Origin: Micavibrio sp.
Lineage (GTDB): Bacteria > Patescibacteriota > Minisyncoccia > Moranbacterales > GCA-2747515
Length of the DNA stretch: 64,000 nucleotides
Assembly: GCA_020718085.1 (NCBI GenBank)
Contig: DYDB01000001.1
Location: forward strand, 117,902-181,901
Direction: 5' to 3'
Part shown: one piece after another, positions 2,318 through 56,458 of the stretch
How the letters are laid out: each line of letters opens with the position of its first letter
Numbering within the stretch: the stretch's first letter is position 1
Made by a program: the position numbers and the translations under genes
The notes under the pieces: generated by a model
Database searches by the model: none
What the model was told of the DNA's origin: nothing
Seen by the model: only the letters and a program-made list of their open reading frames with translations

Positions 2318-2453
2318 TATTTAGGGCATTTAAAAAGTAGTATGTGGTGAAGTAATAACTTCACGCACATTTATCTCACAAAATACAATCAAAGTAGTAA
2401 TTTGTCAAATTATTGGCAAAAAATGGTGATAATTACAAGTAGGAAATCTTTGA

Positions 2454-3572: not shown

Positions 3573-3773
3573 AAAGTAATAAATTTGTTATTATAGCGAA
3601 CTACCTTTTCAGCATAATATATGTACACAGTTCCGTCTACAGTGGGAAATGTGCAGGTTATCTCCTCCTTACCTGTACGTTCGTTTCCTCGTGACTTTAT
3701 GTGACGGGGAACTATATGTAGATGGAACTGTGGGTATATATGTGTATTTTTACATCAAAATAAGGAGACAAAG

Positions 3774-4271: not shown

Positions 4272-4315
4272 AACTCAGATCGCTCCGTGCAATCATATTT
4301 GCATAGGGCGATCTT

Positions 4316-4864: not shown

Positions 4865-4868
4865 AGAA

Positions 4869-6542: not shown

Positions 6543-6689
6543 ATGTTCTTGTAATCAGTAAAAAATAGTCTGGAATAAATGAGGAATTCTTGCTCTAACA
6601 CGATCTCATATATTATGCTACTATAGTGAGGAACAATTTCATTTCAATAATTCACCAATTACTTGTTACCAGTTATTAGCTACTAAACT

Positions 6690-38424: not shown

Positions 38425-39573
38425 ATGAAAAAAATTGGAAAAATTTTTATGCTTGTAAGTGCTGTTCTGGTGATCGGTGGCATCGGTGGCATGTTCTTTG
38501 ATTATATCTTTTTTGCACAAATGGTGAACAATCCTACATGGGCCAATAACGATACTGTCAAAACAATGGCCAGTCGTTATCAAGTGATCAAAAATACAGA
38601 AAAAATTATTGTGGAAAATAGCGAATCGATTGCCGATATTGCTTCGCGTGCAGCAACATCTGTTGTATTCGTGGAAGCTGTGAATGCGGAAGGTGTAACA
38701 TCTGTTGGTAATGGTGTTGTGGTGAGCAGTGATGGTGTGATCGCGACAACAAAAACGGTTGTTCCGACAGGGTTTGATACGCAATATGTGAAATATGCCG
38801 ATGGAAAAGTATACACTGTCACAGATGCGTATACGGATGCGTATAGTGGTATTGTGTTTTTGAGAACAGAGGCAAAAGATCTTGCAACGATCTCATTTGC
38901 AAATTCTGACGATGCGCAAAGCGGTAAACAATTGATCAGTATCATGCAACCGCGTGCAGACAATGGTGCGCATTTTTCTGCCGGCGGACTTGTGGGAAAT
39001 ATATATGATTTTGCAACACAAAGTCCGGCAAGTGATCATTTGCAGGGGGTGCTGGATCTTGATTTTTCTGAAACTGTTTTGCAACAAAATATTGGTGCGC
39101 CGGTCGTGGACTATCAAGGTAATATGATCGGTATGATCTCTGTGAAGAAAGATCAGCCAACGGTAGAAGGTGAATATTATGCGATTGCAGCAAATGATAT
39201 CTATCATGCTTTTGAATCATATTTGCGTGCAAAAAATGTTACGGAGGGTGATACTGTCACACAGCCGCTGTTATTGGGCACAGATTATGAGATCATCAAT
39301 GCAATTGATGCACAGATCAAAAAGATCTCTGTGGATCGTGGAGCGATTATTCCTACGCCTGTCACATATCAAGAAAATGTATTATTCAATGCAACAGTAG
39401 CTGCAAAATCGGGCTTGCGTGCCGGTGATGTGATCATTATGGTAAATAACGATGAGGTGAGTCCAAAGAACAATCTCTCGCGTCTTTTGCATAAATATGA
39501 TCGATCACAAAGTGTGAATTTAACGGTTTTGCGTGCGGGAGAGATCATGACCGTGACAATTCCACAGATTTAA
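38425..39573 (+). CDS. HtrA-like pseudoprotease with PDZ domain; catalytic His and Ser replaced
   Basis: Trypsin-like fold alignable to htrA; His position reads TTKTVV (vs TNRHVV) and Ser position reads QNIGAP (vs GNSGGP); C-terminal PDZ GLRAGDVIIMVNNDEV. Confidence 0.65.
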   Translation: MKKIGKIFMLVSAVLVIGGIGGMFFDYIFFAQMVNNPTWANNDTVKTMASRYQVIKNTEKIIVENSESIADIASRAATSVVFVEAVNAEGVTSVGNGVVVSSDGVIATTKTVVPTGFDTQYVKYADGKVYTVTDAYTDAYSGIVFLRTEAKDLATISFANSDDAQSGKQLISIMQPRADNGAHFSAGGLVGNIYDFATQSPASDHLQGVLDLDFSETVLQQNIGAPVVDYQGNMIGMISVKKDQPTVEGEYYAIAANDIYHAFESYLRAKNVTEGDTVTQPLLLGTDYEIINAIDAQIKKISVDRGAIIPTPVTYQENVLFNATVAAKSGLRAGDVIIMVNNDEVSPKNNLSRLLHKYDRSQSVNLTVLRAGEIMTVTIPQI

Positions 39574-39680
39574 GGAGTCATATTGACAGAGAAAGAAAAA
39601 AGTAGTATATTTGAGGGACGCTGGTGACTTCAAAGTTCACTGTAGATTCAGAGCGTAATTTTTATGTTTATTTCAAGACC

Positions 39681-40030: not shown

Positions 40031-40061
40031 ATTGACAAAAAATCATAACCGTGGTAGAGTC

Positions 40062-40217
40062 TAGTCAAGTAAAAACGTCCCGTGAGGGACACTGTAAACC
40101 GAGTGGCATGATTGACGGATGAGCAACTTCTCATCCACACACATTTCTCTCCCAAGAGTGCCTCTCAACAACCAAACCCCTGTGTCGACTGATGTTGACA
40201 CAGGGGTTTTTCTTTTA
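40062..40217 (+). ncRNA. candidate small RNA (unknown family) with its own promoter and terminator
   Basis: TTGACA(40032)-N17-TAGAGT(40055) promoter; internal hairpins GTCCCGTGAGGGAC and GGATGAGCAACTTCTCATCC; ends in AAACCCCTGTGTCGACTGATGTTGACACAGGGGTTTTTCTTTTAT; no ORF. Confidence 0.35.
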
Positions 40218-43313: not shown

Positions 43314-43820
43314 ATGGTCAGAATTGATATTATCAGCTTTGAACGTGAAACTGTAAATATCGGGCGCAGAGTATTGGAAATATTGCGCAAAATAGGCAAA
43401 GGTGAAAGCGATGTAACGGTTTTGGCACTTCCGCATAAAACGGAAGAAAATACAGAACCATATATCAAAATGGTCTGTGTTGAGTTGTCTCCAGTTATGG
43501 AGATTCTTTCTGCATTTAGGCAAGAAAAATATTTCCAGAATGTGTGTATTATTGCCGGCTCCATCTGTGGCATGAGGATTTCCGCATCAGAATTTGATCA
43601 AAAAATATCTGATATTGAGACCGCATGGAATAAAGGGCCACGATATGGTGTATCTGACAAGGTTCAATGTCATGGTCTTCCCGGTACTATCAAAGAAAGA
43701 CAGTTGATATACCACAATCGAGGCGAAACGTGGACATGGGGATATGACGTTGAATGGGACAAAGAAAAACCCAGTATTTCACTTGTATATCTGCCGGAAG
43801 GATATTTGCAAGATGCATAA
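43314..43820 (+). CDS. hypothetical protein (cassette A)
   Basis: 168 aa; RBS GAAGGAGGGG upstream; promoter-like TTGACA at 43203. Confidence 0.5.
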   Translation: MVRIDIISFERETVNIGRRVLEILRKIGKGESDVTVLALPHKTEENTEPYIKMVCVELSPVMEILSAFRQEKYFQNVCIIAGSICGMRISASEFDQKISDIETAWNKGPRYGVSDKVQCHGLPGTIKERQLIYHNRGETWTWGYDVEWDKEKPSISLVYLPEGYLQDA

Positions 43821-43847
43821 AGCAGTTTAGTCGGTGAAAAGATCGAC

Positions 43848-43889
43848 AAAACGACCCGCTTATAATAAGCAGGGTCGTTTTCTTTTTCC
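43848..43889 (+). terminator. terminator, member of conserved AAAACGACCC...GGGTCGTTT family
   Basis: AAAACGACCCGCTTATAATAAGCAGGGTCGTTTTCTTTTTCC. Confidence 0.75.
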
Positions 43890-43903
43890 TTATAAAAATC
43901 ACT

Positions 43904-43951
43904 GTCATCCCGCCACTACGCCTGCCTGCCGGTAGGCAGGGTCGGGATGAC
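43904..43951. repeat. hairpin repeat, CATCC...GGATG family (copy 0)
   Basis: TGTCATCCCGCCACTACGCCTGCCTGCCGGTAGGCAGGGTCGGGATGACA; shares CTGCCTG.CCGGTAGG core with copies at 46331 and 47150. Confidence 0.6.
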
Positions 43952-44018
43952 AAAAAAATCGTGTGATTGTTTATAGTTGTAGCTGTTTTTAGTTTTCAGA
44001 TTGTTTGACGCGATACTA

Positions 44019-44048
44019 TTGACAAAAACACAAAATTAATGTATAGTG
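44019..44048 (+). promoter_or_regulatory. sigma70-type promoter for cassette B
   Basis: TTGACA-N18-TATAGT. Confidence 0.6.
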
Positions 44049-44108
44049 GCAAGTTGGGTTTTTTAACAGAAGACAGCAAGTAATCACAAAAACACATTGA
44101 GGAGGATG

Positions 44109-44783
44109 GTCATGGTAGAGGACATTTTTTCTGGTGAAGTGATGGGAAGTCCTGCTTTTCCGAAAAAGGGTTTTTTGAACGCATGGGACAAGAGGGATTG
44201 GGGAATCAAAGTCCTGGAAGAGTACGTGAGGAAAATTCATGGACGTACGATCTCCGCCTATGACAACGGCAACAGGCAGGGTCGTTTGACCGGAATAAAA
44301 GCGTTTGTTCAGCTGGGTGAAAAACTGATCACATACGCCCTGATCGAGCCCAAAAAAAAGCAGGACCAGGTTCTGATCGTGCGCACAGAGTCGCATGTTG
44401 ATGAGCTCTCTACTGTCGAGTGCCTACCGTCCGAGAATGATAGTGTCAACACACTCGCAAGTGCGTTCACAAAAGCAAAGATCGATCCAGATCAGCTCAG
44501 GCAGGAACTTCCTTCCAAAGATGAGCTGATGGTTGTGGAGATCAATCACAATCGTAAAACCAACTCACTGGGAATTGCACCACAATATCTGGATGAGGAT
44601 CCTTTGTTGAGCGGTCAGAAATCCATGCGCGTTTTTTATCCCGTTTCGGTTAATGGTGAGCTGCAGATTGGCCAAAAATGGCGCTGTCGGCAGACAAAAA
44701 AACCTGTCGTTGCCGGTGCAAACAAGCATGGCGTCCCGATGATTCACATCAATGTGGAGCTCATGCGGGCCATGGCAGCTTAG
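44109..44783 (+). CDS. hypothetical protein (cassette B)
   Basis: Start at ATG after GAGGAGG; about 224 aa; higher GC than neighbours; no motif. Confidence 0.5.
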   Translation, partial: VMVEDIFSGEVMGSPAFPKKGFLNAWDKRDWGIKVLEEYVRKIHGRTISAYDNGNRQGRLTGIKAFVQLGEKLITYALIEPKKKQDQVLIVRTESHVDELSTVECLPSENDSVNTLASAFTKAKIDPDQLRQELPSKDELMVVEINHNRKTNSLGIAPQYLDEDPLLSGQKSMRVFYPVSVNGELQIGQKWRCRQTKKPVVAGANKHGVPMIHINVELMRAMAA

Positions 44784-45026
44784 ACAAAATTTCCACAAAG
44801 GAAAAATATACGACTCAGTCATCCGATGATGATTGGGTCGTATTTATTTTTGCAAATCGTATGTAATTGTAGGGTCTTTGCGAGAAACGGAGCAAAGCGT
44901 AGTGACGAAGCAATCTCAATTGATGTATGAGAAATTGCATATGTGAGATGGCTTCGTTGCCACACTCCTTCCGTCAGAAGTAAGACAAGTGTAAAGCTGT
45001 CAAAAAAGTGAACATTTTATACTGCA

Positions 45027-45054
45027 TTGACTATAAATATGTAGAGGATATAAT
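45027..45054 (+). promoter_or_regulatory. sigma70-type promoter for cassette C
   Basis: TTGACT-N16-TATAAT. Confidence 0.55.
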
Positions 45055-45113
45055 ATACGGAAATAGTATTATTAACAACAATATAATAAAAAATATCTGA
45101 AAAAGGAGCGAAG

Positions 45114-45392
45114 ATGTTTTCATCACAGAATATTATAATTCTCTGTATTTTTATCGGTCTTTTGCTCATTACGGCAGGAGCCATGTTCTATCTGGGTATG
45201 TGTTATGGCAAGGAGGAAGAAAAAGATGGATGGCATAAAAAATTTTTAAAAGATGTGGTCAAATCACAATCAAAAAAATGGGTGTGTACAGTTCTCATCA
45301 CATACCGCAAAGATTCAGATGTTGTACCCGATATCAACGTGGCCATCGGAAGCATGAAACCGGCTGATCCTGCATCCGATGGCAAAAAGTAA
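45114..45392 (+). CDS. small membrane protein (cassette C)
   Basis: 92 aa, one N-terminal TM; RBS AAGGAG. Confidence 0.5.
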   Translation: MFSSQNIIILCIFIGLLLITAGAMFYLGMCYGKEEEKDGWHKKFLKDVVKSQSKKWVCTVLITYRKDSDVVPDINVAIGSMKPADPASDGKK

Positions 45393-45436
45393 TATCAAAC
45401 CGCATATCAGATTTTTTTCAACAGATCTATTTTGCA

Positions 45437-45480
45437 AAACGACCCGATCACATAATGTGAGAGGGTCGTTTAATTTTTTT
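45437..45480 (+). terminator. conserved-family terminator (copy 1)
   Basis: AAAACGACCCGATCACATAATGTGAGAGGGTCGTTTAATTTTTTT. Confidence 0.75.
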
Positions 45481-45503
45481 ATAACAGTGGGACTTATGTG
45501 TTT

Positions 45504-45593
45504 GTCATCCTGAGCGAAGTCGAAGGATCTTAAAATGCAAAAAATACGATGGAGTGCCGTTGTAGGAGATTCCTCCACTTCGGTCGGAATGAC
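45504..45593. repeat. imperfect hairpin repeat GTCATCCTGAGCGAAGTCGAAGGATC ... TTCCTCCACTTCGGTCGGAATGAC
   Basis: 26 nt left arm nearly identical (24/26) to inverted copy at 51913-51938; right arm partially complementary. Confidence 0.6.
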
Positions 45594-45633
45594 ATAGACT
45601 CTCATATCGTAAGATGTATTAAAAAGTCGATAA

Positions 45634-45662
45634 TTGACAAGCGGTTGTAAAAATAGTACAAT
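45634..45662 (+). promoter_or_regulatory. sigma70-type promoter for cassette D
   Basis: TTGACA-N17-TACAAT. Confidence 0.55.
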
Positions 45663-45728
45663 GGTGAGTCTTTGGTCATTTAAAAAAGTATTTCTACAAA
45701 CAACGCTATATATTGTGGAGGTTCAAAA

Positions 45729-46235
45729 ATGGAATTGAAAGAGGGTCTCGTGTTAGTCCTTGATGATGGGAGTTATTCTTATGAATTAGAAAAAGATTTT
45801 GTCGCTTTTGCGGCAGATGAGCGATTGATCCATTATGCGTGCATGGCCGCGCGACCGGGATTTGAAGAATTATCAGCAAAGCTTGAACATACACATTACA
45901 AACCACTGACAGTGCGAAATGAGCTCATGAGTGTACGAGCGTTGTTGTGGAATGACATCACGTGGTTCGTGATCAGTATACCATCCAAAGAAAAACATCT
46001 TTTGGAGGATATGGCCGGAACGTATGGCATGCGAGTCGCCAACGGTGTTCCGATGATGTTCGGACATAATTGCCGTATGCATTTTCCGATACGCGGTAAA
46101 AATGTCTTTACATTGGAAAACGTGGCTGGCCATCCGGTGTATCGCAACGACGCTGCCATTAATTGTGCAATGCAACAAGCAGAGCGTGAGGCTGCGGAGA
46201 ACATCAGAGCCGACAAAGAACAAAAGCCAAGTTAA
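45729..46235 (+). CDS. hypothetical protein (cassette D)
   Basis: 168 aa; RBS GGAGG; no motif. Confidence 0.5.
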   Translation: MELKEGLVLVLDDGSYSYELEKDFVAFAADERLIHYACMAARPGFEELSAKLEHTHYKPLTVRNELMSVRALLWNDITWFVISIPSKEKHLLEDMAGTYGMRVANGVPMMFGHNCRMHFPIRGKNVFTLENVAGHPVYRNDAAINCAMQQAEREAAENIRADKEQKPS

Positions 46236-46279
46236 AAACCCACCAGCAGAAAATCTGCTTCGGTGGGTTTTCTGTTTTT
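46235..46279 (+). terminator. rho-independent terminator
   Basis: AAAAACCCACCAGCAGAAAATCTGCTTCGGTGGGTTTTCTGTTTTT. Confidence 0.75.
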
Positions 46280-46330
46280 ACAATATGATAAATAGAGGAT
46301 AATTACGAAAACTTAAAAAATCACATATGT

Positions 46331-46388
46331 CCCCATCCCTATGGGAGAGTCTGCCTGTCCTGCAGGGATGGGTTGGGGTGAGGGAAGT
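46331..46388. repeat. hairpin plus G-quadruplex-motif repeat (copy 1)
   Basis: CCCCATCCCTATGGGAGAGTCTGCCTGTCCTGCAGGGATGGGTTGGGGTGAGGGAAGT; contains GGG-AT-GGG-TT-GGGG-TGA-GGG. Confidence 0.65.
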
Positions 46389-46417
46389 TGAAAAGGGTTA
46401 GACATTATCGGCATGTA

Positions 46418-46446
46418 TTGACAATATATCAAAAATGTTCTATAAT
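46418..46446 (+). promoter_or_regulatory. consensus sigma70 promoter for cassette E
   Basis: TTGACA-N17-TATAAT exact consensus hexamers. Confidence 0.65.
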
Positions 46447-46514
46447 GTCCAGATGCTTAATAGTGAGCGGAATCTCGTTTCTTTACAATATCAACTTGAA
46501 TAAGGGGTGAAAAT

Positions 46515-47075
46515 ATGAAAAAAGGCGATATCATCATCAAAAGTACCAATCGTGGATACATGTCAATGAACTTTTGGGCAGTGTTATGGTGCGTTGGTTT
46601 TTATTTCATCGCCAGATGGGCGGATCTATATATGGAAGATGATTATATGAGTTATAGATTGTTTCCATGGCCGCCTCTCTGTGTGTATGGTTCGTATGTG
46701 GTAATGGGTATTATTGCAGTGGTTAATATATATACTATTATTTACTCTGCTAAAGAGGTGGGAATCATCTCATACGGGGAAAATGGTTTTTTGGAAAAAC
46801 TTTCTGCTTGGTCATATGGTTTTCCATTTTCCAAGCGAACCGTAGATTTACCATTCAATCGCATTATTGAAATTGAAGTCTCGCAAGGAAGCATTGACCG
46901 TTTGCTCAATACCGGTTCGCTGACTGTAAAATTCATTACATTTGCGAATGCAGAGACCTTGGAGAAAAAGTGGACATTTCCTGCGATCTGCGCTCCAGTA
47001 GCGAGAAAAAAAGAGATTGAAGAAGCCATAGCAGACCATGAGGGCCTGCTGGTCAAGTTGAAAACAGAGCAGTAA
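46515..47075 (+). CDS. bacterial PH-domain membrane protein (bPH_2/YdbS-like, DUF304) (cassette E)
   Basis: Two N-terminal TM helices followed by VDLPFNRIIEIEVSQGSIDRLLNTGSLTVKF, the characteristic bPH_2 core. Confidence 0.6.
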   Translation: MKKGDIIIKSTNRGYMSMNFWAVLWCVGFYFIARWADLYMEDDYMSYRLFPWPPLCVYGSYVVMGIIAVVNIYTIIYSAKEVGIISYGENGFLEKLSAWSYGFPFSKRTVDLPFNRIIEIEVSQGSIDRLLNTGSLTVKFITFANAETLEKKWTFPAICAPVARKKEIEEAIADHEGLLVKLKTEQ

Positions 47076-47106
47076 AATATCACTGCTCAAAAAAGAGAAA
47101 AGATCT

Positions 47107-47144
47107 CAAATCATAATGGTTTGAGATCTTTTTACTTTATGTAA
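47107..47144 (+). terminator. rho-independent terminator
   Basis: AAAAGATCTCAAATCATAATGGTTTGAGATCTTTTTAC. Confidence 0.7.
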
Positions 47145-47149
47145 AAAAA

Positions 47150-47210
47150 GCCCCTTCTCCCTATGGGAGAGCATGTCTGTCCGGTAGGGATGGGTTGGGA
47201 TGAGGGAAGT
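47150..47210. repeat. hairpin plus G-quadruplex-motif repeat (copy 2)
   Basis: CCCCTTCTCCCTATGGGAGAGCATGTCTGTCCGGTAGGGATGGGTTGGGATGAGGGAAGT. Confidence 0.65.
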
Positions 47211-47238
47211 CGAATTCGTTCGGATAGGATCAAAGAAA

Positions 47239-47268
47239 TTGACAAAAATAGAAATTTATGATATAATG
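47239..47268 (+). promoter_or_regulatory. consensus sigma70 promoter for cassette F
   Basis: TTGACA-N18-TATAAT. Confidence 0.65.
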
Positions 47269-47331
47269 GTCATTCAGAAAAACTCTGATTTTTATTATTT
47301 AAAAACCACCATAAGATAAAGGAGAGAAAAG

Positions 47332-47850
47332 ATGAAGAAGGTAATGATCAATACAAGCATTGTATGTGCAGCGATTATTATTTTATTTGGAGGAACTGGA
47401 ATTGTTTTTTTGAAGATCATGTGTAGCGACAAGATTTCTACGGAAATGCTTGTTGATATACACAATGATCCGTTCAAATTCCCACTGTGGGAAATGACAA
47501 AAAAAGATCTTCAAAAAGAAATACCGGCGATGTCAGGAAAAAATCTCGGAAAACTAATTCAGAACATGAACCAGTTTGCACGAGAACTATCGTCGAATGA
47601 GATCGTTAAGCGAATTTCTGCTTACAGTTCGGGAGATGTCATAACTTTAGGCAATGAAATCAATCGAATGGATGTTTGGGAGGTGCTAATCGCCAAAGAA
47701 ATATCTCCCAGAATTAAAGATCTTGATGCAATGGATCTTCATAGCTTGTCAAAAACTCCTTTGAGAGATTTGGCAATTGCTGAGATTCGTTATCGCATTA
47801 GCAACAGCACATTGGATCAGAAATTTCTTCAAATGTGCATGATAGATTGA
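47332..47850 (+). CDS. hypothetical secreted/membrane-anchored protein (cassette F)
   Basis: 172 aa; N-terminal signal/TM; low GC; RBS AGGAGAG. Confidence 0.5.
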   Translation: MKKVMINTSIVCAAIIILFGGTGIVFLKIMCSDKISTEMLVDIHNDPFKFPLWEMTKKDLQKEIPAMSGKNLGKLIQNMNQFARELSSNEIVKRISAYSSGDVITLGNEINRMDVWEVLIAKEISPRIKDLDAMDLHSLSKTPLRDLAIAEIRYRISNSTLDQKFLQMCMID

Positions 47851-47868
47851 AGAGCACTTCATTTTATC

Positions 47869-47912
47869 AAAACGACCCGATCACATAACTGTGGTTGGGT
47901 CGTTTAAATTTT
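47869..47912 (+). terminator. conserved-family terminator (copy 2)
   Basis: AAAACGACCCGATCACATAACTGTGGTTGGGTCGTTTAAATTTT. Confidence 0.75.
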
Positions 47913-48046
47913 AATAATATTATTAATGTGATAATAAGTATTTTGAACTTGTGTACCATGTTTGAACTTTTTATACAAAAACGAGGATATTCGACCACTT
48001 TAGATCGCGAATCAGAAAACCTAAAAAATCATCTATATATCAACAA

Positions 48047-48172
48047 ACCCCCTCTCCCTATGGGAGAGGGTTGGGGTGAGGGAATTAGTAAATTGTGCAA
48101 GAATGGCATATTTTTTGTGTATGAGAAATGTTATATCCCTCACCTCAGTCCTCTCCCATAGTGAGAGGAGGC
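48047..48172. repeat. G-rich repeat copy 3 (48047-48084) with diverged inverted partner (48135-48172) forming a large hairpin
   Basis: AACCCCCTCTCCCTATGGGAGAGGGTTGGGGTGAGGGAATT ... ATCCCTCACCTCAGTCCTCTCCCATAGTGAGAGGAGGC. Confidence 0.6.
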
Positions 48173-48197
48173 AATATTTTATTGGCAGGTTGGATAT

Positions 48198-48226
48198 TTG
48201 ACAAATCCAATATAATGGTATATAAT
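48198..48226 (+). promoter_or_regulatory. consensus sigma70 promoter for cassette G/H
   Basis: TTGACA-N17-TATAAT. Confidence 0.6.
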
Positions 48227-48259
48227 GCGAATTTGACGTGGTGTCAATTTATGAATTAA

Positions 48260-48757
48260 TTGTTCGTTGTCAAATTTTACTCAGGAGTGTATATGAAAGC
48301 TAAATATCTGCAATACTGCGTGTTATTGGCAATCTCATGTTTTATTATGGGAATTCATTCTATCGCTTGCGCCGATGATTTTAAAGCTATGTTGGCGCCA
48401 GCACCAGATCAAGAGATCTCTGTGAGAGGGCATCTGGAAAAGGATGGTAAAAAAATGATCGTGGAATATGTTTTTGATTTCCACAATCCTGATCAGCGCA
48501 ATCGTTCTCAAAAGATTTTTGATGACGTTTATCTCAGGTTGCTACGAAATAATTGGAAGCAATCGTTGAGTTTTAATGTCACTTTAGCCGACTATTATGT
48601 TTCGCTGACCTATGTATTCGAGAAGTCACCAAAACAATTGGCAGGCATTATGGTGGAGCGGTGTCAAAAAGGTGACATTAAAGAAAAGCAGATACTATTG
48701 CAATATGGTGCTAATGCCGCGGAACACGTAGTTTCAGCACTAGATAGTGTTAAGTAA
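48260..48757 (+). CDS. hypothetical secreted protein (cassette G)
   Basis: Signal peptide MKAKYLQYCVLLAISCFIMGIHSIACADD; 165 aa; no motif. Confidence 0.5.
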   Translation: MFVVKFYSGVYMKAKYLQYCVLLAISCFIMGIHSIACADDFKAMLAPAPDQEISVRGHLEKDGKKMIVEYVFDFHNPDQRNRSQKIFDDVYLRLLRNNWKQSLSFNVTLADYYVSLTYVFEKSPKQLAGIMVERCQKGDIKEKQILLQYGANAAEHVVSALDSVK

Positions 48758-48778
48758 TCATAGTACGTAATTCAACGG

Positions 48779-49198
48779 GTGAATTACGCTTCACAGCATC
48801 GCTCTTATAATGAGGGCACAGCACCGGAGGTAATGACAATGGAAAATTCAGTAAAGATCGAACAGGCAGAAGGTGATTTTCAAGTTCATGCACAATTATC
48901 TAGCGAATTGCTTAGCAACATTGATGACTTAAAGGCGCTATTAAATCAATCCTTGAGTCGGAACAACATACATGCGTGCATGTGTAGATTCAATGATGTT
49001 GTCGTATTTTCATCCTCTAATTTTGGGGGATGGTCAGAGAAGACGGCGCAGATCGTGTTTGGGAAAGTGGTTGAATGTTTACCGGTTTATGAACTGAGCA
49101 TAAAGCTGACCAAACGGAAAAGACAGGTTCGGGATGCACTGAACAAGTGCACTGATCCTACACTCATCGAAGAGATCGGACGCCTGTTAAGAGTCTAA
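48779..49198 (+). CDS. hypothetical protein (cassette H), co-transcribed with G
   Basis: 139 aa; start may be internal Met; no terminator between G and H. Confidence 0.45.
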   Translation: MNYASQHRSYNEGTAPEVMTMENSVKIEQAEGDFQVHAQLSSELLSNIDDLKALLNQSLSRNNIHACMCRFNDVVVFSSSNFGGWSEKTAQIVFGKVVECLPVYELSIKLTKRKRQVRDALNKCTDPTLIEEIGRLLRV

Positions 49199-49211
49199 TG
49201 ACTCACCAACG

Positions 49212-49255
49212 AACAACCCAATCACATAATGTGGCTGGGTCGTTTAATTTTTATT
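49212..49255 (+). terminator. conserved-family terminator (copy 3)
   Basis: AACAACCCAATCACATAATGTGGCTGGGTCGTTTAATTTTTATT. Confidence 0.7.
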
Positions 49256-49445
49256 GGACGATAAAATGCGAAAAATACGTAGTTGGCTCTATCGGAGGAA
49301 ATCCGAACTATTTTATGTAATTTATAGAAAATATTGTCAATTTCTGGTATACTTCAGCTATAAAAGTAAAGAGGTTTACTTTACTATATTGTATGATATT
49401 ATATTGTGTTACAATGCGATACATAGACATTAATTAGATGGTGAT

Positions 49446-49784
49446 ATGAGAATAGAAAATGGAAAAATTGAGGGAGATTTAATAGTTGATACAGGTATAG
49501 ATTTGCGCGGAATGGTCACTGGTAATGTTTTTGTAACGAATGGTTCAAATTTTATACTGCACGGTCAGGTGTGTGGAGATTTGATAATTGAAGATGATGC
49601 TAATGTTATGATATTTGGGCAAGTCGTTGGAGACGTTATCAATAATGGGAATAAACTTGAAGTCATGGGAGTAATTTCTGGATCTCTGATAAACAACTCT
49701 AGAAAATCAAAAATAGCATCAAGCGCAAGTATCGGTAAATTTATCGAATATGACAAAAAAATTCAATCCATTTGTACCACATAG
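49446..49784 (+). CDS. bactofilin-like beta-helical repeat protein (cassette I)
   Basis: 112 aa; repeated G-x-V/I-x-G-D/N-V/I units (GMVTGNVFV, GQVCGDLII, GQVVGDVIN, GVISGSLIN) resembling the bactofilin/CcmA DUF583 beta-helix. Confidence 0.45.
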   Translation: MRIENGKIEGDLIVDTGIDLRGMVTGNVFVTNGSNFILHGQVCGDLIIEDDANVMIFGQVVGDVINNGNKLEVMGVISGSLINNSRKSKIASSASIGKFIEYDKKIQSICTT

Positions 49785-51009
49785 TCCTGTTTATAATGAC
49801 ATGTTTGCTGGTAGAATGACGGAAATAGAACATATAGATAATGCATTATATCAAGCAAAGAAAGGAAATCCGACACATATAATGTTGACTGGCGAAAGAG
49901 GCATTGGTAAAACTTCTCTGCTTTTGTTAGCCAAATTCTTTGCAAATGGAGAAATTATTTATGATGATGCTTCGCATAATTTTCTGACTGTGCAAGTAAC
50001 GTTGACGAACAAAATGTCCATTGTTGATCTTGCTGTTTCTCTAAAAAAGAACATTAAACGTGAAATTGATAAACGAGATCCTGACAGCGCATTGATAAAA
50101 AAATGTTGGAATTATTTTTTAAAAATAGAAGCTTGTGGATTAGCTTTTAGGGGAGATAAAAGTGAGGAAACTACGTTTCAAAAAGATCAAGTAGTAGATG
50201 AATTTATATACGCATTAGTTGATACAGTAAAGAATGTCACGGGTGATTCATTAGCAACAGACATGGGATTGAAAAGTCCATTGGATGGCCTGGTGGTGTT
50301 AATTGATGAGGCAGATAATGCAAATGCGGATTTGGATCTCGGTGTATTTTTAAAGAAGGTTAACGAAACTCTTGTATCAGAGAGGTGTAATAATGTAATG
50401 TTTTTACTAGCAGGGTTGCCTAATCTACATGAGGTGTTAAGCAAAAGTCACGAATCATCTTTAAGATTATTTAAAAATTATAATTTGGATCCACTTACAA
50501 GAGCTGAGGTAACACAAGTAATGAAAAGTGGATTGAGCGAGTATTATGATGAGACTGGTGAAAAAGTTACAATTGATGACGATGCATTAAGACTCATATA
50601 TCTATATTCTGAAGGCTATCCTCATTTTGTCCAGCAAATTGGTCATTCAATATTTGAAAATTTAAAAGGAAATAAAATTATAGAAACTGATGTACGAAAA
50701 AGCTTTTTAGGAAAAAATGGTGCATTGAAACTTATTGGTGATCGATATTATTATAAGATTTTTTACATTGATATAAAAACAGATGTTCAGAGAAAAATAT
50801 TATCGATTATGGCAGAAAATTGGGATGAATGGGTGGATAGAGATTTTATTAAAAGGCGTTACAAAGGTAAAGTGGCAACATTAGATAGTGGATTAAAATC
50901 ACTGAGAGAAAAAAATATCATCTTATCTCGCAAAGGTAAGAGGGGTCAGTATAGGTTACAATGGGCAAGCTTTGCTTTTTGGATAAAAAAACATAAAGAA
51001 ATGCAGTAA
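49750..51009 (+). CDS. AAA+ ATPase, archaeal-ATPase/AAA_16-like, with C-terminal winged-helix-like region (cassette J)
   Basis: IMLTGERGIGKTSLL Walker A, VVLIDEADNA Walker B; N-terminal NPFVP..P....FAGR..E pattern of ATPase_2/AAA_16 proteins; 35-nt overlap with upstream gene; GC clearly lower than flanks. Confidence 0.6.
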   Translation: MTKKFNPFVPHSPVYNDMFAGRMTEIEHIDNALYQAKKGNPTHIMLTGERGIGKTSLLLLAKFFANGEIIYDDASHNFLTVQVTLTNKMSIVDLAVSLKKNIKREIDKRDPDSALIKKCWNYFLKIEACGLAFRGDKSEETTFQKDQVVDEFIYALVDTVKNVTGDSLATDMGLKSPLDGLVVLIDEADNANADLDLGVFLKKVNETLVSERCNNVMFLLAGLPNLHEVLSKSHESSLRLFKNYNLDPLTRAEVTQVMKSGLSEYYDETGEKVTIDDDALRLIYLYSEGYPHFVQQIGHSIFENLKGNKIIETDVRKSFLGKNGALKLIGDRYYYKIFYIDIKTDVQRKILSIMAENWDEWVDRDFIKRRYKGKVATLDSGLKSLREKNIILSRKGKRGQYRLQWASFAFWIKKHKEMQ

Positions 51010-51275
51010 GTAAAAATCTTGCATTTTTCCTTCATTCGAATACTATATTAGTCATAATTATATAGTATGTTTTACAATCCTAATAAGTTATGCGAAGAAG
51101 CACTTATCGATATATTCCAGATAATGAAGTAAATTCGAAAAGTGCAACAATTAAAGCAGAAAAATAAATTCTGTTTTCTTATTCGTGATTATGAATATAG
51201 CTATTTGAAGAAAAATTAAACTCTTCTTCAAAACAAAAAAACGTTCCGAAAGGATAGGTTGATAGGATTCGAACT

Positions 51276-51866
51276 CTATGAAATCTTCTCACGATTGTTA
51301 ATCGCACTACGAATTGTCATGTCGTCTGCATATTCAATATCCGAGCCTGTGGCGAGTCCACGCACAAGTCGTGAAATGTGAATATCTTTATTTGCACGCA
51401 CGAACATATCTTGTAAATACATTGCTGTCAGATCTCCTTCTGTGGTGAAATTGGTCGCGATAATGATCTCTGTGAAACCATTTTGTAGCACTCTCTTGAG
51501 AAGTGGTTCGATTGAGAGGTGATGCGTGTCCTGTTTTTTGATCGTGCCACCGAGGACGTGATACATGCCATTGTATGCACGAGATCGTTCGATCGGGAGA
51601 ATGTCCAACGATTCTTCCACAATGCATAACTGCGTATGATCACGCGAAGAATCTGCACAGATCTTGCATTGGTCACTTTCAGCGATATTGAAACACGTTT
51701 TGCATGATGTGATGTCTTTGATGCGGAGCAGGTCACGTGCAAAATCATCTATGCGATCTGAACTGTTTTTGTACAGATGAAGCACGAGTCGTTCCGCCAT
51801 TTTGGGACCGATGCCTGGGAGACTGTTGAAATGATCGATCAATTTTTGAAATGATGAGGGGTACAT
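51276..51866 (-). CDS. recR: recombination protein RecR
   Basis: HhH (LPGIGPKMAERL), C4 zinc finger (CKTCFNIAESDQCKIC), Toprim domain. Confidence 0.92.
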   Translation of the reverse strand: MYPSSFQKLIDHFNSLPGIGPKMAERLVLHLYKNSSDRIDDFARDLLRIKDITSCKTCFNIAESDQCKICADSSRDHTQLCIVEESLDILPIERSRAYNGMYHVLGGTIKKQDTHHLSIEPLLKRVLQNGFTEIIIATNFTTEGDLTAMYLQDMFVRANKDIHISRLVRGLATGSDIEYADDMTIRSAINNREKIS

Positions 51867-51912
51867 TTTTATTAATGAATAATTAATAATGAAAAATGAT
51901 ATTTACATGTGA

Positions 51913-51938
51913 GATCTTTCGACTTCGCTCAAGATGAC
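51913..51938. repeat. inverted copy of the GTCATCCTGAGCGAAGTCGAAGGATC repeat
   Basis: GATCTTTCGACTTCGCTCAAGATGAC is the reverse complement of 45504-45529 with 2 mismatches. Confidence 0.6.
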
Positions 51939-51986
51939 ACGCTCTTTTGTAAACTGTAAATTGAGAATTGAAAATTATTGCACATG

Positions 51987-53336
51987 TTATTCGTGGTGTT
52001 GCATCATGTGGTGTTTTTCGAGACTTTTGTATGATGCGGCTTCTTCGTGGAAGTAGAGTTGTTTGGAACCTACTGGGCCGTTACGGTGTTTAGCGATGAT
52101 GATCTCTGCAACCCCTTTATTTTCTGTGTCGGGATTGACGCGGTCTTCACGATAGATGAACATAACCACGTCAGCATCCTGCTCGATGGATCCGGATTCA
52201 CGAAGGTCGGAGAGTTTTGGACGTTGATCGGGACGTGATTCTACAGCACGGGACAACTGGGAGAGTGCAACGATTGGGATATTTAATTCTTTGGCGAGCA
52301 TTTTGAGACCGCGGGAAATTTCGGAGATCTCTTGTACGCGGTTTTCATTGCCTCTGCCTTCCATAAGCTGGAGGTAGTCGATGATGATGAGTCCCAGATT
52401 ATGTTCTGCCTGGAGACGACGTGCCATTGTGCGCATTTCCATGATATTGGCACTTGAGGTGTCATCGATGAAGATCGGTGCTTCGGACAGTGTGCCCATT
52501 GCTTCGTTGATTTTGGTAAAATCAGAATCCTTGAGATTGCCGGTGCGAAGTCGCCAGAGGTCGAGATTGGACTCAGCGGCGATCATACGATCGACCAACT
52601 GGTCCGCGGACATTTCCAGTGAGAAGATGCCCACAGGAATGCGTGCGAGCGTGCCTACTTGGCGTGCGATATCAAGCGCGAGCGATGTCTTACCGACAGA
52701 TGGACGGGCAGCGAGGATGATGAGATCGGATTTTTGCAGTCCGGAAAGAAGATCATCCAAATCAGGAAATCCCGTAGGTACACCGCGCATGACGCCTTTA
52801 TTTTTATGTAGATCATCCAAACGATCAAATGCCTCACCCAAAATTGTTTTGATGGAGGTGAATTCTTGCTTGAGTGATTTTTGAGAAACGCTGAAGATCT
52901 TTTGTTCCGCATCATCCAAAACCTTTTCAATATCTTCCGCTTCATTGTAGCCAAGTTCATTGATCTCTGACGCAACGCCGATGAGACGTCGCAATACGGA
53001 TTTTTTTTGAATGATCTTTGCATAGTACGTGATATTGGATGCGCTAGTGACACCACGTACAAGAGAGGCGAGATAGGATGCACCACCGATCGACTCGATG
53101 CGCTTTGTTTCTTCGAGCGCATTGGAAAGACTGAGCACATCGATGGGATCATTGTGTTCGTAGAGTTTGAGCATCGCATCATAAATGACATTGTGGGCTT
53201 CTTTGTAAAAATCACCAACGCCAATCGTATCTGCAATTTTTGTGATCGCGTCTTTGTCGACCATGAGGGCGCCAAGAACGGTTTTTTCTGCTTCCATCGC
53301 ATGCGGGGGCATGCGTGTGTCTGTATTTTCTGCCAT
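51987..53336 (-). CDS. dnaB: replicative DNA helicase DnaB
   Basis: N-terminal PHAMEAEKTVLGALM; RecA-like domain with ARPSVGKTSLAL Walker A and IIIDYLQLM. Confidence 0.93.
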   Translation of the reverse strand: MAENTDTRMPPHAMEAEKTVLGALMVDKDAITKIADTIGVGDFYKEAHNVIYDAMLKLYEHNDPIDVLSLSNALEETKRIESIGGASYLASLVRGVTSASNITYYAKIIQKKSVLRRLIGVASEINELGYNEAEDIEKVLDDAEQKIFSVSQKSLKQEFTSIKTILGEAFDRLDDLHKNKGVMRGVPTGFPDLDDLLSGLQKSDLIILAARPSVGKTSLALDIARQVGTLARIPVGIFSLEMSADQLVDRMIAAESNLDLWRLRTGNLKDSDFTKINEAMGTLSEAPIFIDDTSSANIMEMRTMARRLQAEHNLGLIIIDYLQLMEGRGNENRVQEISEISRGLKMLAKELNIPIVALSQLSRAVESRPDQRPKLSDLRESGSIEQDADVVMFIYREDRVNPDTENKGVAEIIIAKHRNGPVGSKQLYFHEEAASYKSLEKHHMMQHHE

Positions 53337-53580
53337 AGGGGAACGGTTTTATAAACTAGTGTATTTATTATAGCAGAAATACCCAGAAACCGTCTGTTCA
53401 CAACGTGTGTACAGAATGTGGGTATTTTTTTGGCTTAAATGGTCGATTTTTGGTCATTTTGCCATGAAGATATTGACAGAACTAGTACTTCATGATACAA
53501 TACACAGTCATCTTTATAAGAGTGATTTTCTTATGGAATTTTGCTATTATAAGATAAATTATTCATTAGTATATGTATAT

Positions 53581-54117
53581 ATGCAAAAAATGAACATTAT
53601 AGTTGCGATTTGTGCAGCTTTTATCGGTACAGTGATCGCTACACAGGTCCATGCGGCAACAATTGGAAATACTGTGTGGCATGATCGCAATGCAAACGGC
53701 GTACAAGATGCCGGAGAAGAAGGTATTGCAAATGTGCGCGTAAAACTCTACAACGGTGACGAAGTAGAGACAGATCGCACAAATTCTTCTGGGCGATATA
53801 AATTTGATGATCTTGAACCGGGACAATATACGATCGTTGTGGCACAAGAAACATTGCCAGCAGGTTGTCGTCCAACATATGATCGTGATGGAAATAAAAA
53901 TGGTGTGTACAGCGATAAATATCTTCATGAGGAAGACAAATTTACGCATGCAGACTTTGGGTACAAATGTACACAAGCAACAACATCACATGCACGTAAG
54001 ATCTCTCCTGCAACAGGTGCAGGCACTGTATCTGCGGTAATTGCAACAGCTGTTGCTGTAGCTATTGGTGCATATGTATATCGTCGTCGTACGATCAAAA
54101 ATATTCTACAAAAATAA
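53581..54117 (+). CDS. SdrD B-like (Cna-B-type) domain surface protein with sortase-type tripartite C-terminal signal
   Basis: Signal peptide; GNTVWHDRNANGVQDAGEEGIANVRVKLYNGD...SSGRYKFDDLEPGQYTIVV; C-terminus SPATGAG plus hydrophobic helix plus RRRTIKN. Confidence 0.6.
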   Translation: MQKMNIIVAICAAFIGTVIATQVHAATIGNTVWHDRNANGVQDAGEEGIANVRVKLYNGDEVETDRTNSSGRYKFDDLEPGQYTIVVAQETLPAGCRPTYDRDGNKNGVYSDKYLHEEDKFTHADFGYKCTQATTSHARKISPATGAGTVSAVIATAVAVAIGAYVYRRRTIKNILQK

Positions 54118-54231
54118 TTACACAGAGAACAAAAAATGCAACAAAAGACTTGCTATAATAGGCAAGTCTTTTGTATAGCACGCTTTATGATCATGGTGTA
54201 TAATTGAAAACACATGTTCGTTGATATTATT

Positions 54232-54591
54232 GGAAGTTCGTCGGATGACAGCTCTACGGAGAGGAAAGTCCGGACACCTGCACGCCTTTGGCGTGTATAA
54301 CGGTAGTGGGTAATACCCACCTAGAGTGATCTACGAGGTGCGAGCAGTGACGCATAGAACCGCAAGGTTGTATGACCCAGTTTCTCTTTGAGACGGGGAT
54401 ATGCTCATAGTAATATGAGAGTGAAACGGCTAAATCTTTACCAAGGTGCAAGATCGTGTCACGCACCCAAAAACACCAAAGTTTTTTGATGTTCTTGGGT
54501 GCGTGAAGAATCGCAAAGACGCATATGGCAACATAGGCGCAAGACAGATTGTCATCTTCAACGACAGAATCCGGCTTACAGATGATCTTCC
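54232..54591 (+). ncRNA. rnpB: RNase P RNA (bacterial type A)
   Basis: P4 strands GAGAGGAAAGTCCGGACACC (5-prime) and ACAGAATCCGGCTTACAG (3-prime) match universally conserved RNase P RNA sequences; GGAAG...CTTCC P1 pairing; TATAAT at about 54199. Confidence 0.85.
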
Positions 54592-54652
54592 AATAATGCA
54601 AATGAACAAGTATATATAATTATGATCGATATTTGATAGAATATTTATTTTT

Positions 54653-56077
54653 ATGAAAAAATCAGAATTACTTTTTAGTATCATGCAGGTATTCATGGAC
54701 TTCGCACTTCTCGTTTGTGGTGCGCTTGTGGCCTATAGATTACGTGACACGACACAGATCCAAAGTTTGATCAATAAGGAGGGTTTGTACAATGTATCAC
54801 TTGAACAATATGTACAACTCACCATACTGGTGGCGATCGTTGCTGTGATCGTTTATGCATTTGAGGGCTTGTACAATATACGTTCCACGAGACATTTTTG
54901 GCAGGAATCTTATGCGGTCTTCAAAGGATCGACGATCGTCATCGTGATGGTGATGATCGGGTTCTTCTTGCAACGTGAGTGGTTTTCTTCTCGATTTATC
55001 ATCGTTTCGGCGTGGGGATTGGCAATTGTTTTTGTATGTTTTGGTCGCGTATTTTTGCATGGATTGCAAAAATACTTTTTGGTATACAAGGGCATCGGTG
55101 TGCATCGCGTGCTTCTCGTGGGAGCAGGTGAAAAAATGAAATACATTTGCAGTGTGATCCGCGCACAGAAACATTTGGGTTATCGCATTGTGGACCATGT
55201 AGAGTACATCAATATTCCACAGATCAAGAGCATTCACAAGTTACAAGGCATTGATGAGGTGATCGTACATGAATCATCACTTCCGGATGATCTTTTGATC
55301 AAGCTGCATGACTTTTGTGAGATCAATAATATTACGTATAAATATATGCCGTCATCTTTGCAGGCGACGCGCTTTGAGATGTCCATGTTTGCCGGTGAAC
55401 CATTAATTGAACATTTGCATACACCGCTTGACGGATGGGGAAAGATCATCAAGAGAGTGATGGATATCATCATTTCCGGTGTACTTATCATATTCACGAG
55501 TCCGATCATGCTCATCTCCGCTCTTTTGGTAAAGCTGGAAAATGTGCATGCGCCGATCGTATTCAAAAATGCCCGTATCGGTGCCGATGGAAAAGAATTT
55601 AACGTCTACAAATTTCGTTATATGAAATGGCAGTGGTGTACAACAAAGAAAAATCCCGACTGGGAAAAGGCAATGGCTTATGAAAAAGAACTGATCGCAA
55701 AACGATCTGTGCGCGTAGGTCCGATTTACAAGATCAAAGATGATCCGCGAAAGTCATGGATCGGCAAATTTCTCGAGAGATTCTCACTTGATGAGTTCCC
55801 ACAATTTTTTAATGTATTTTTGGGTGATATGAGCTTGGTGGGACCGCGACCGCATCAAGGACGTGAAGTGGAAAAATATCGTGAATATCATCGTCGTCTC
55901 CTCACGATCAAGCCGGGTATTTCTGGTATGGCACAAATTTCCGGACGTAGTGATCTGAATTTTGAAGATGAATATCGATTGGATGTGTATTACATCGAAC
56001 ATTGGTCGATCCTTCTTGATCTCAAAATACTTCTCAAAACACCATTTGCTGTTTTGCGTTCACGCAACAATTCATAG
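54653..56077 (+). CDS. polyprenyl-phosphate hexose-1-phosphate transferase (WbaP/WcaJ-like bacterial sugar transferase)
   Basis: 474 aa; N-terminal multi-TM; C-terminal domain with FRYMKW, LDEFPQFFNVFLGDMSLVGPRP motifs. Confidence 0.85.
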   Translation: MKKSELLFSIMQVFMDFALLVCGALVAYRLRDTTQIQSLINKEGLYNVSLEQYVQLTILVAIVAVIVYAFEGLYNIRSTRHFWQESYAVFKGSTIVIVMVMIGFFLQREWFSSRFIIVSAWGLAIVFVCFGRVFLHGLQKYFLVYKGIGVHRVLLVGAGEKMKYICSVIRAQKHLGYRIVDHVEYINIPQIKSIHKLQGIDEVIVHESSLPDDLLIKLHDFCEINNITYKYMPSSLQATRFEMSMFAGEPLIEHLHTPLDGWGKIIKRVMDIIISGVLIIFTSPIMLISALLVKLENVHAPIVFKNARIGADGKEFNVYKFRYMKWQWCTTKKNPDWEKAMAYEKELIAKRSVRVGPIYKIKDDPRKSWIGKFLERFSLDEFPQFFNVFLGDMSLVGPRPHQGREVEKYREYHRRLLTIKPGISGMAQISGRSDLNFEDEYRLDVYYIEHWSILLDLKILLKTPFAVLRSRNNS

Positions 56078-56085
56078 TATAATGG

Positions 56086-56457
56086 ATGCATAATTATAAA
56101 TATGCATATTATATGAGATATGTTATCAAACTCCTTCTCGTTGCTGGATCATTACTGGTCGCTTCGCATTTTGTAGACGGAATCACAATTGATCGTTTTT
56201 GGCCAACGGCGATCATCGCTGCGCTTGTCCTTGGATTCTTGAATAGTGTGCTCAGGCCTATATTAAAGACCCTATCTTTGCCAATCAATGTGCTTACACT
56301 TGGTCTGTTTGGTTTTTTGATCAATATTTTTATATTTTGGCTTTTGACATTTGTACCGGGCGTTGCGATCGACGGTTTCATGGCGGCGATGTGGGGCGTG
56401 ATCATTGTGTCAATTATGGGATGGGTGATCGATATGGTTACGCAAAAGAAAGAATAA
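56086..56457 (+). CDS. small membrane protein, DUF360/holin-family-IV-like
   Basis: 123 aa, 4 TM, GFLNSVLRPIL...LTLGLFGFLIN pattern. Confidence 0.5.
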   Translation: MHNYKYAYYMRYVIKLLLVAGSLLVASHFVDGITIDRFWPTAIIAALVLGFLNSVLRPILKTLSLPINVLTLGLFGFLINIFIFWLLTFVPGVAIDGFMAAMWGVIIVSIMGWVIDMVTQKKE

Positions 56458-56458
56458 C

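Follow-up and report, generated by a model that had tools for sequence, protein, structure and literature searches.

BoxC-type repeats and a nested 20-nucleotide palindrome in the spacers of an orphan-gene island

We analysed a family of short GC-rich repeats in a 64,000-nucleotide stretch of contig DYDB01000001.1 (GenBank assembly GCA_020718085.1), here called the window, with coordinates counted from its first letter. Judged by their sequence, the repeats are a new occurrence of the already described BoxC / PIT / TM_ECO family. All copies lie in intergenic spacers, and all of these spacers belong to an island of orphan genes (43314-51009). Our best explanation, to which we give a probability of roughly 0.62, is that they are selfish or neutral repeats, prone to form structures, which occupy the terminator-to-promoter spacers of this island. 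A preliminary description of this DNA had placed three direct copies and a diverged inverted partner here, and all four were present, well above chance expectation (Table 1).

Family identity and architecture of the repeats

The short unit is built of block 1, CCCTCTCCC (48050-48058), the loop TAT, block 2, GGGAGAGGG (48062-48070), the loop TT and block 3, GGGGTGAGGG (48073-48082). It was 89.5% identical over 38 nt to copies in all of the complete E. coli genomes (5,426/5,426), with matches at a median of 14 places per genome, and agreed block by block with the TM_ECO units in Table 1 of Holder et al. 2015 (PMC4666352). That study lists 23 units in E. coli K-12, for example CCCTCTCCC-TGT-GGGAGAGGG-CCG-GGGTGAGGG, treats these, the older BoxC repeats and Hoyne and Maher's PIT (potential intrastrand triplex) elements as one family, and reports the BoxC/PIT/TM elements in E. 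coli and more than 260 other genomes.

We derived a pattern from the four window copies, and it matched more than 119 loci, among the matches listed, in species-representative genomes. The matched taxa include Acinetobacter, Pseudomonas, Serratia and Nannocystis, with Proteobacteria among the phyla, as well as Chloroflexi, Cyanobacteria, Planctomycetes, Nitrospira, Ignavibacteria, WOR-3, Bipolaricaulota and a Levyibacteriota (Candidate Phyla Radiation, CPR) metagenome-assembled genome (MAG). After more than 30 years, the BoxC/PIT family has, to our knowledge, no accepted function or copying mechanism; earlier work on these elements is reportedly that of Bergler 1992 and of Hoyne and Maher 2000 and 2002.

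Both long copies follow the same order of parts. In copy 1 the C-block CCCCATCCC (46331-46339), the loop TAT and GGGAGAG (46343-46349) are followed by a 20-nt insert, TCTGCCTGTCCTGCAGGGAT (46350-46369, a degenerate nested palindrome), and by GGGTTGGGGTGAGGG (46370-46384). In copy 2 the corresponding parts are the C-block CCCCTTCTCCC (47151-47161), the loop TAT, GGGAGAG (47165-47171), the 20-nt insert CATGTCTGTCCGGTAGGGAT (47172-47191) and GGGTTGGGATGAGGG (47192-47206). A repeat finder showed the 57-nt copies at 46336-46392 and 47158-47214 to be 88% identical, and 48136-48171 to be 86% complementary to 48048-48083 across a gap of 52 nt. The short unit and its partner (48048-48084 and 48136-48171) are a cruciform-capable pair, like the classical palindromic BoxC. 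The same forward-plus-inverted BoxC layout was found in the E. coli hrpB-mrcB spacer; RefSeq K-12 carries no BoxC annotation, and this pair is no exception.

For each half of the motif the repeat finder also gave a family of three members across the window. With up to three mismatches allowed, the 3' half (GGGTTGGGGTGAGGGAA) matched 3 times against 0.10 expected from shuffles of the 64 kb. The 5' half (CTCCCTATGGGAGAG) matched 6 times at 5 distinct sites, 4 of them inside copies, against 0.34 expected. No further copies of the BoxC-type repeat were found elsewhere in the 64-kb window. No direct repeats flank the copies, so the combination of terminal inverted repeats and target-site duplication that marks a miniature inverted-repeat transposable element was not seen.

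The likeness to BoxC/PIT extends over the three blocks nearly base for base (CCCTCTCCC, GGGAGAGGG, GGGTGAGGG), and both share short variable loops, intergenic siting and forward-plus-inverted pairs. The window copies differ in their host, probably an uncultivated groundwater bacterium with a genome of about 40% GC, and in forming a single cluster in 64 kb. They also differ in the 20-nt loop-2 insert of two copies, with a T in the purine block, and in the degenerate state of the partner unit. What is new is that the family occurs in a genome which is small, moderately AT-rich and probably of CPR type, and which has few G-rich sequences, so that each copy stands out.

The preliminary description had read the element as a hairpin followed by a G-quadruplex (G4). 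This was correct and re-derives the 'G-quadruplex-hairpin-duplex switch' (HPG1/HPG2) under which Kaplan et al. 2016 (PMC5100583) described the same units, found through a G4 search; however, the family had already been named, and the mirror relation of the third block had been overlooked. The triplex motif combines a pyrimidine block, a purine block that is Watson-Crick complementary to it, and a purine-rich third block that mirrors the second (G·G, A·A and T·A triads). In the definition of the triplex finder ITxF, with which Holder 2015 searched (PMC4666352), the stems have 6-15 nt with at most 1 mismatch and the loops have 1-6 nt. Positions 48050-48082 fit this definition with a 9/9/9 design and all nine triads allowed, and since the third G-block mirrors the second, the short unit is a classical intrastrand-triplex motif. 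The long copies fall outside the definition, as their second loop has at least 20 nt and their outer stem (CCCATCCC/GGGATGGG) is not homopurine.

In 103 short-loop copies from many phyla we further compared the G-run that closes block 2 with the one that opens block 3, and their lengths covaried (Spearman 0.61, p ~1e-11). The covariation is suggestive, the copies not being independent of one another, of a triplex-type unit rather than a hairpin with an arbitrary G-rich tail.

Both strands of the window were scanned for canonical G4 motifs, that is, four runs of at least three G with loops of N1-7. Only three were found on either strand, one in each direct copy, while first-order Markov simulations gave a mean of 0.13 and a maximum of 1. 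The motif is a textbook one, as had been described, and the direct copies had G4Hunter scores of 1.64-1.80. The inverted partner has no G4 motif because its G-runs are broken, with only two G3 runs left. Four G-runs together with a C-rich 5' flank, the pattern of the Kaplan switch, were present in the three direct copies and absent from the partner. The copies also resemble that switch in their conserved loops, in the hairpin which the C-rich flank allows and in their opposite-strand pairs. They differ from it in the long copies, where the G-runs (GGG-AT-GGG-TT-GGGG-TGA-GGG) all lie 3' of the insert, so that G4 and outer hairpin would compete differently there.

Folding was predicted as Watson-Crick hairpins in single-stranded DNA. 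The proposed CCC...GGG hairpins did fold, single copies modestly better than shuffles (z -0.6 to -2.0), and the forward and inverted pair together gave -28.3 kcal/mol (z = -4.96). E. coli units fold in vitro as single strands into a hairpin, an intrastrand purine-motif triplex or a G-quadruplex (PMC4666352, PMC5100583). Rfam, searched at E up to 1 on the island and at the gathering threshold on the whole window, gave no match to the repeats that reached the gathering score. A sub-threshold match of the inverted pair to the plant microRNA precursor MIR1507 (31 bits against 73 needed) is spurious and reflects the long hairpin only.

The nested palindrome and the composite copies

Compared with the short unit, copies 1 and 2 have exactly 20 extra bases between GGGAGAG and GGGTTGGG. 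On this alignment the long copies are BoxC units with a nested, degenerate 20-nt palindrome (CCTGCCTGCCGGYAGGCAGG) in loop 2. The consensus of the palindrome, CCTGCCTGCCGG(C/T)AGGCAGG, is a perfect 20-nt one, and the insert of copy 2 still has its CCGGTAGG intact. Because copies 1 and 2 share the decayed insert while their flanks are unrelated, the composite was copied as a unit between adjacent spacers.

The intact palindrome was also found inside the element at 43904-43951, where its T variant, CCTGCCTGCCGGTAGGCAGG, forms the inner hairpin at 43921-43940. This element had been described as a related copy of the repeat. It is linked to the long copies through the palindrome but is a different hairpin, of the 'GTCAT...' kind, and not a member of the family; its fold gave -18.3 kcal/mol (z = -5.06).

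A comparison with strain L202 (GCA_017973895.1) showed presence/absence polymorphism of the palindrome. L202 is 98.7% identical to the window over 48181-57272, with only two indels in 9 kb, and has a perfect 20-nt palindrome, CCTGCCTGCCGGCAGGCAGG, inserted at 51917 in the hairpin element of the recR-dnaB spacer. No target-site duplication accompanies the insertion at 51917 in L202 relative to the window.

The palindrome occurs across phyla. In 47 DNA stretches from viral contigs with 33-70% GC we found 54 copies, against a roughly estimated chance expectation of less than 1. Three of these copies (L233:977; L234:332 and 4512) sit exactly in loop 2 of BoxC-like units, and the long copies of the window align with these intact composites. 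The L233/L234 contig holds seven empty units beside the three filled ones. In another case the palindrome stands at the variable-loop position, as a long variable arm, of a phage tRNA-Met (L239:2239-2330), and ARAGORN still calls the tRNA. Contig L234 (IMGVR_UViG_2848964341_000001) has about ten BoxC-like units within 8 kb (276-7361), and most of them are preceded by GAGTGTAGC, which contains GTAG, a hallmark of repetitive extragenic palindromic (REP) sequences; this flank is absent from the window copies.

Flank identity of at least 6/7 was seen at only 5 of the 52 other palindrome copies, which gives no general signal of target-site duplication. The four of these 5 that were inspected by eye lie in tandem-repeat contexts, and candidate duplications of 7-8 nt were rejected because they, too, proved to be tandem repeats. 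We found no description of the 20-nt palindrome in the literature, and a search of plasmid and phage collections for the composite element gave no match.

It is conceivable, though we hold it doubtful, that the palindrome is a distinct and apparently undescribed ultra-small mobile element which enters loops of structured DNA without target-site duplication, and that the orphan island shelters a guild of hairpin parasites which nest in one another and occur across phyla. Such a guild, if true, would comprise BoxC, the GTCATCCTGAGCGAAG... family, the ...CGACGAAGCAATCTC family and the palindrome, and its copying mechanism would be new. The composite variant itself is new in showing loop 2 as a landing site for a second mini-element, as is the polymorphism of that mini-element between near-identical strains, and the filled and empty sites give a concrete basis for studying the insertion mechanism.

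Promoter proximity and competing explanations

The preliminary description had put the copies just upstream of strong promoters and had suspected a regulatory link. The position holds in the window, where the -35 hexamers are 30, 29 and 26 nt away, the third counted from the inverted partner. The link was not borne out in 107 copies from other genomes, in which a promoter-like site of at least 10/12 lay downstream on the same strand in 3% of cases compared with 1-3% in three control flanks. Promoter proximity is real in the window and is not a property of the family. In E. coli the units lie 10-310 nt from open reading frames (ORFs) with no trend, the PIT elements show no promoter or terminator activity, and the triplex was seen only in isolated single strands, neither in duplex DNA nor by in vivo dimethyl sulfate (DMS) footprinting (Holder 2015, PMC4666352).

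These results bear on a promoter-proximal switch, in which the G-rich non-template strand upstream of the -35 box would flip between duplex, hairpin, triplex and G4 and so modulate RNA polymerase or UP-element contacts. We regard such a switch as improbable, even though the copies stand 26-30 nt from three perfect promoters, their G-rich strand is the coding strand in all three direct copies and these copies hold the only G4 motifs in 64 kb. The E. coli units do change topology in vitro depending on K+/Mg2+, and a regulatory role was proposed for them (Kaplan 2016, PMC5100583). However, promoters are not enriched beside the 107 copies elsewhere, and the E. coli findings of inactive PIT elements and of a triplex undetected in duplex DNA or in vivo tell the same way. 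In the window, the third promoter lies closest to the partner, which has no G4, and three neighbouring island spacers have equally strong promoters 38-67 nt behind unrelated hairpins.

The element also lies within coding regions of other genomes, which is a further point against the switch. A BoxC-like unit is in frame within alanyl-tRNA synthetase (AlaRS) of the Levyibacteriota MAG (L098:2262-2335), where it encodes ...SLTPTLSHRERIKGEGVG..., and another is in frame in the editing domain of leucyl-tRNA synthetase (LeuRS; ...SPLPMGEGQGVRES...) at the same site in six Pseudanabaena genomes (loci L052, L080, L093, L096, L102 and L119). Because of these AlaRS and LeuRS copies, BoxC is not 'always intergenic' outside E. 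coli. In this respect the family resembles the Rickettsia palindromic elements (RPEs), which also sit in frame in essential genes; RPEs differ in being 100-150 bp long and lineage-restricted, and the window copies are all intergenic. The composites, the palindrome polymorphism and the in-frame synthetase copies together favour a view of 'mobile structured DNA' over a gene-regulatory one. In other genomes the third block was expanded to (GGGTGA)n, or whole units were tandemly duplicated (L029:7617-7669, L074, L114, L084), which points to slippage-type growth of the element.

A role at the 3' end of the upstream transcripts, as back-up terminators or mRNA-stabilising hairpins of the kind proposed for REP and bacterial interspersed mosaic elements (BIMEs), would fit the position of the copies about 17-140 nt after a terminator and on the same strand as the upstream gene. 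We consider this role very improbable. The units lack the form of intrinsic terminators, since no T-run follows the hairpins and the gene-strand 3' sequences read AAGTTGAA, AAGTCGAA and AATTAGTA; a weak terminator match was found on the minus strand at 48070-48050. Purine-motif triplexes do not form in RNA (PMC4666352), and the E. coli units have no terminator activity. The copies moreover follow strong intrinsic terminators and should therefore rarely be transcribed.

RAYT is a Y1 HUH transposase that mobilises REP sequences, and an inverted REP pair is termed a REPIN. A RAYT gene in another part of the genome could mobilise the repeats as REP-like elements, with the inverted pair as a REPIN, and the inverted-pair architecture and the size would fit. 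Like REP, BIME and REPIN elements, the window copies are short palindromic repeats, rich in GC and intergenic, and both kinds tend to form inverted pairs and to follow terminators. In contrast, neither GTAG nor CTAC was found at either end of any window copy, a 5' GTAG being the REP mark, and no Y1 transposase or RAYT was found in the 64 kb. The genome is small with only one cluster of copies seen, and the BoxC sequence is kept across phyla while REPs are species-specific. Mobilisation by a RAYT is thus quite unlikely for the window; with the GTAG-bearing 5' flank of most of the roughly ten L234 units, it may apply elsewhere.

In the reading that we prefer, of a selfish or neutral repeat, the units are short non-coding GC-rich elements made of a pyrimidine block, a complementary purine block and a mirroring G-rich third block. 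As single strands the window units may fold into a hairpin, triplex or G-quadruplex, as do their E. coli counterparts. They would have settled in the only places where they are tolerated, in the untranscribed gap between terminator and promoter of a lineage-specific orphan-gene island, and would neither drive nor tune the neighbouring promoters. Their main effect would be structural, through the inverted pairs, as hosts for nested insertions such as the palindrome in loop 2, and through assembly breaks. The literature ties the BoxC family to higher local variability or instability (Holder 2015, PMC4666352), and the repeats may perhaps promote local indels during replication or repair. With this link and the one strain-level indel of the palindrome, a recombination element, which the preliminary description had also suggested, is possible. 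The unit of spread would be the element itself, the 57-60 nt composite having been copied between the adjacent spacers without its flanks.

The strain and population comparison showed the palindrome indel as the only dynamic event. A groundwater metagenome assembly contained the same sequence as the window. In three independent assemblies a break falls on the inverted pair or next to it, as would be expected from repeated k-mers.

Four points weigh against the selfish or neutral reading. A second assembly of the same population has the BoxC copies unchanged, and in the island the window and L202 hardly differ (1 single-nucleotide polymorphism in 3.3 kb), so that no instability of the BoxC units themselves was seen. 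The three promoter-proximal ends all lie 26-30 nt from a perfect -35 hexamer, which is tidier than random scatter. No copy is present in about 15 other window spacers of 120 bp or more, so 'any free space' is not the whole story. Finally, a search of the 64 kb revealed neither a transposase nor any other enzyme that could copy the units.

The island and neighbouring features

The window is ordinary chromosome. It encodes TopA, DprA, SMC, EF-G, two HtrA-like proteases, ClpB, L21 and GH57, together with a starch synthase, RecR, DnaB, a glycosyltransferase cluster and an RNase P RNA that was matched in Rfam. The compact gene set, along with DUF5656 and DUF4012, may point to a CPR (Patescibacteria) bacterium. 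The coordinates of the repeats, the island and its regulatory sites are collected in Table 1.

Table 1. Positions of the repeats, other hairpin elements, promoters and terminators in the window
Feature	Position	Strand	Remarks
Long copy 1	46331-46388	+	G4 motif 46365-46384
Long copy 2	47150-47210	+	G4 motif 47187-47206
Short canonical BoxC/PIT/TM unit	48048-48084	+	G4 motif 48062-48082
Diverged inverted partner	48136-48171	-	minus-strand reading CCTCCTCTCACTATGGGAGAGGACTGAGGTGAGGGA
Different hairpin element	43904-43951	+	stem GTCATCCCG (43904-43912) / CGGGATGAC (43943-43951)
Hairpin unit of the GTCATC..GAGCGAAGTCGAA family, recR-dnaB spacer	51912-51939	-	93% complementary inverted copy of 45503-45530
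Island of ten co-directional orphan genes, glgA-recR	43314-51009	+	most monocistronic, with own promoter and terminator
Sigma-70-type promoter, 186-aa gene	46418-46446	+	TTGACA-17-TATAAT, 12/12
Promoter, 172-aa gene	47239-47267	+	consensus 12/12, TG extension
Promoter, 154-aa gene	48198-48226	+	consensus 12/12
Terminator-like hairpin, 186-aa gene	47097-47133	+	about 17 nt before copy 2
Terminator-like hairpin, 172-aa gene	47870-47905	+	AACGACCCGATCACAT..GGGTCGTTT family, also at 45438 and 49212

For the ten island genes, searches gave no Pfam, PADLOC or informative PHROG matches beyond a weak bPH_2, a sub-threshold bactofilin and an AAA ATPase. A defence island or prophage was rejected, as there were no PADLOC hits and the PHROG match was only one of unknown function, to the 419-aa ATPase. 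No paralogy was found among the cassette proteins of the island. Its promoters are near-perfect sigma-70 sites, three of them 12/12 and three 11/12.

Six consecutive island spacers each have one GC-rich hairpin element between terminator and promoter. Such an arrangement would fit a cassette array, integron-like or novel, whose hairpins mark boundaries of cassette gain, loss or shuffling. The island genes are unrelated orphans, the terminators and promoters look standardised, and the island is absent beside glgA in the nearest relatives found in metagenomes, which have 72% (1.1 kb of flank only, with different content) and 48% amino-acid identity. We nevertheless judge recombination or junction sites of this kind quite improbable. 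Only three of the six hairpins are BoxC-type repeats, and the elements come from at least three unrelated families. Core pairs of the attC type (RYYYAAC...GTTRRRY, 50-150 nt apart), as in integrons or in attC clusters that lack an integrase (CALINs), were absent from 8 spacers on both strands, and Pfam revealed no integrase, tyrosine or other recombinase in the 64 kb. The two strains showed no cassette gain or loss over 48181-51009. Look-ups of exact proteins found nothing beyond the same population (99.9%) and a single 98.7% strain, always in this same context, with no alternative contexts found for the cassette proteins. Neither BoxC nor another hairpin motif was found in 80 glgA-relative loci, the lineage being too poorly sampled.

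The regulatory parts of the cassettes share more than their core motifs. The terminator hairpins at 43848-43882, 45438-45478, 47871-47911 and 49212-49252 form a repeat family (AACGACCCGATCACATAATGTG..GGGTCGTTTAATTTTT) with up to 88% identity, and the promoters have more than the two hexamers in common (TATTGACAA...).

A second hairpin family, TGTCATCCTGAGCGAAGTCGAAGGATC, was found at 45503-45595, with an inverted and diverged partner, TGTCATTCCGACCGAAGTGGAGGAATC, at 51912-51939. Its motif gtcatcctgagcgaagcgaaggat also occurs in a Dehalococcoidia locus (L097), which makes the family cross-phylum. The third family, at 44870-44975, is an inverted pair on ...GCGTAGTGACGAAGCAATCTC / GAGATGGCTTCGTTGCC.... 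Related units of the ...CGACGAAGCAATCTC and ...CTCGCAATGAC type were seen close to BoxC units in loci of Chloroflexi and Vampirovibrionales (L064, L075, L079, L108). We found nothing relevant in the literature on the second and third families. For annotation, units such as those described here are a source of false small ORFs and of breaks in assemblies.

Downstream of the L21 gene, at 40033-40212, a promoter-like TTGACA... site and a strong terminator hairpin, aaacccctgtgtcgactgatgttgacacaggggttttt, bracket about 150 nt without an ORF. This region matched no Rfam family at threshold and could be a small RNA or leader.

Differences between assemblies and strains occurred in clustered short patches, mostly at every third base, within HtrA, RecR and DnaB (39456-39590, 51513-51822, 52017-52092, 52500-53200 and others). 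These clusters look like recombination tracts or a mixed-strain consensus.

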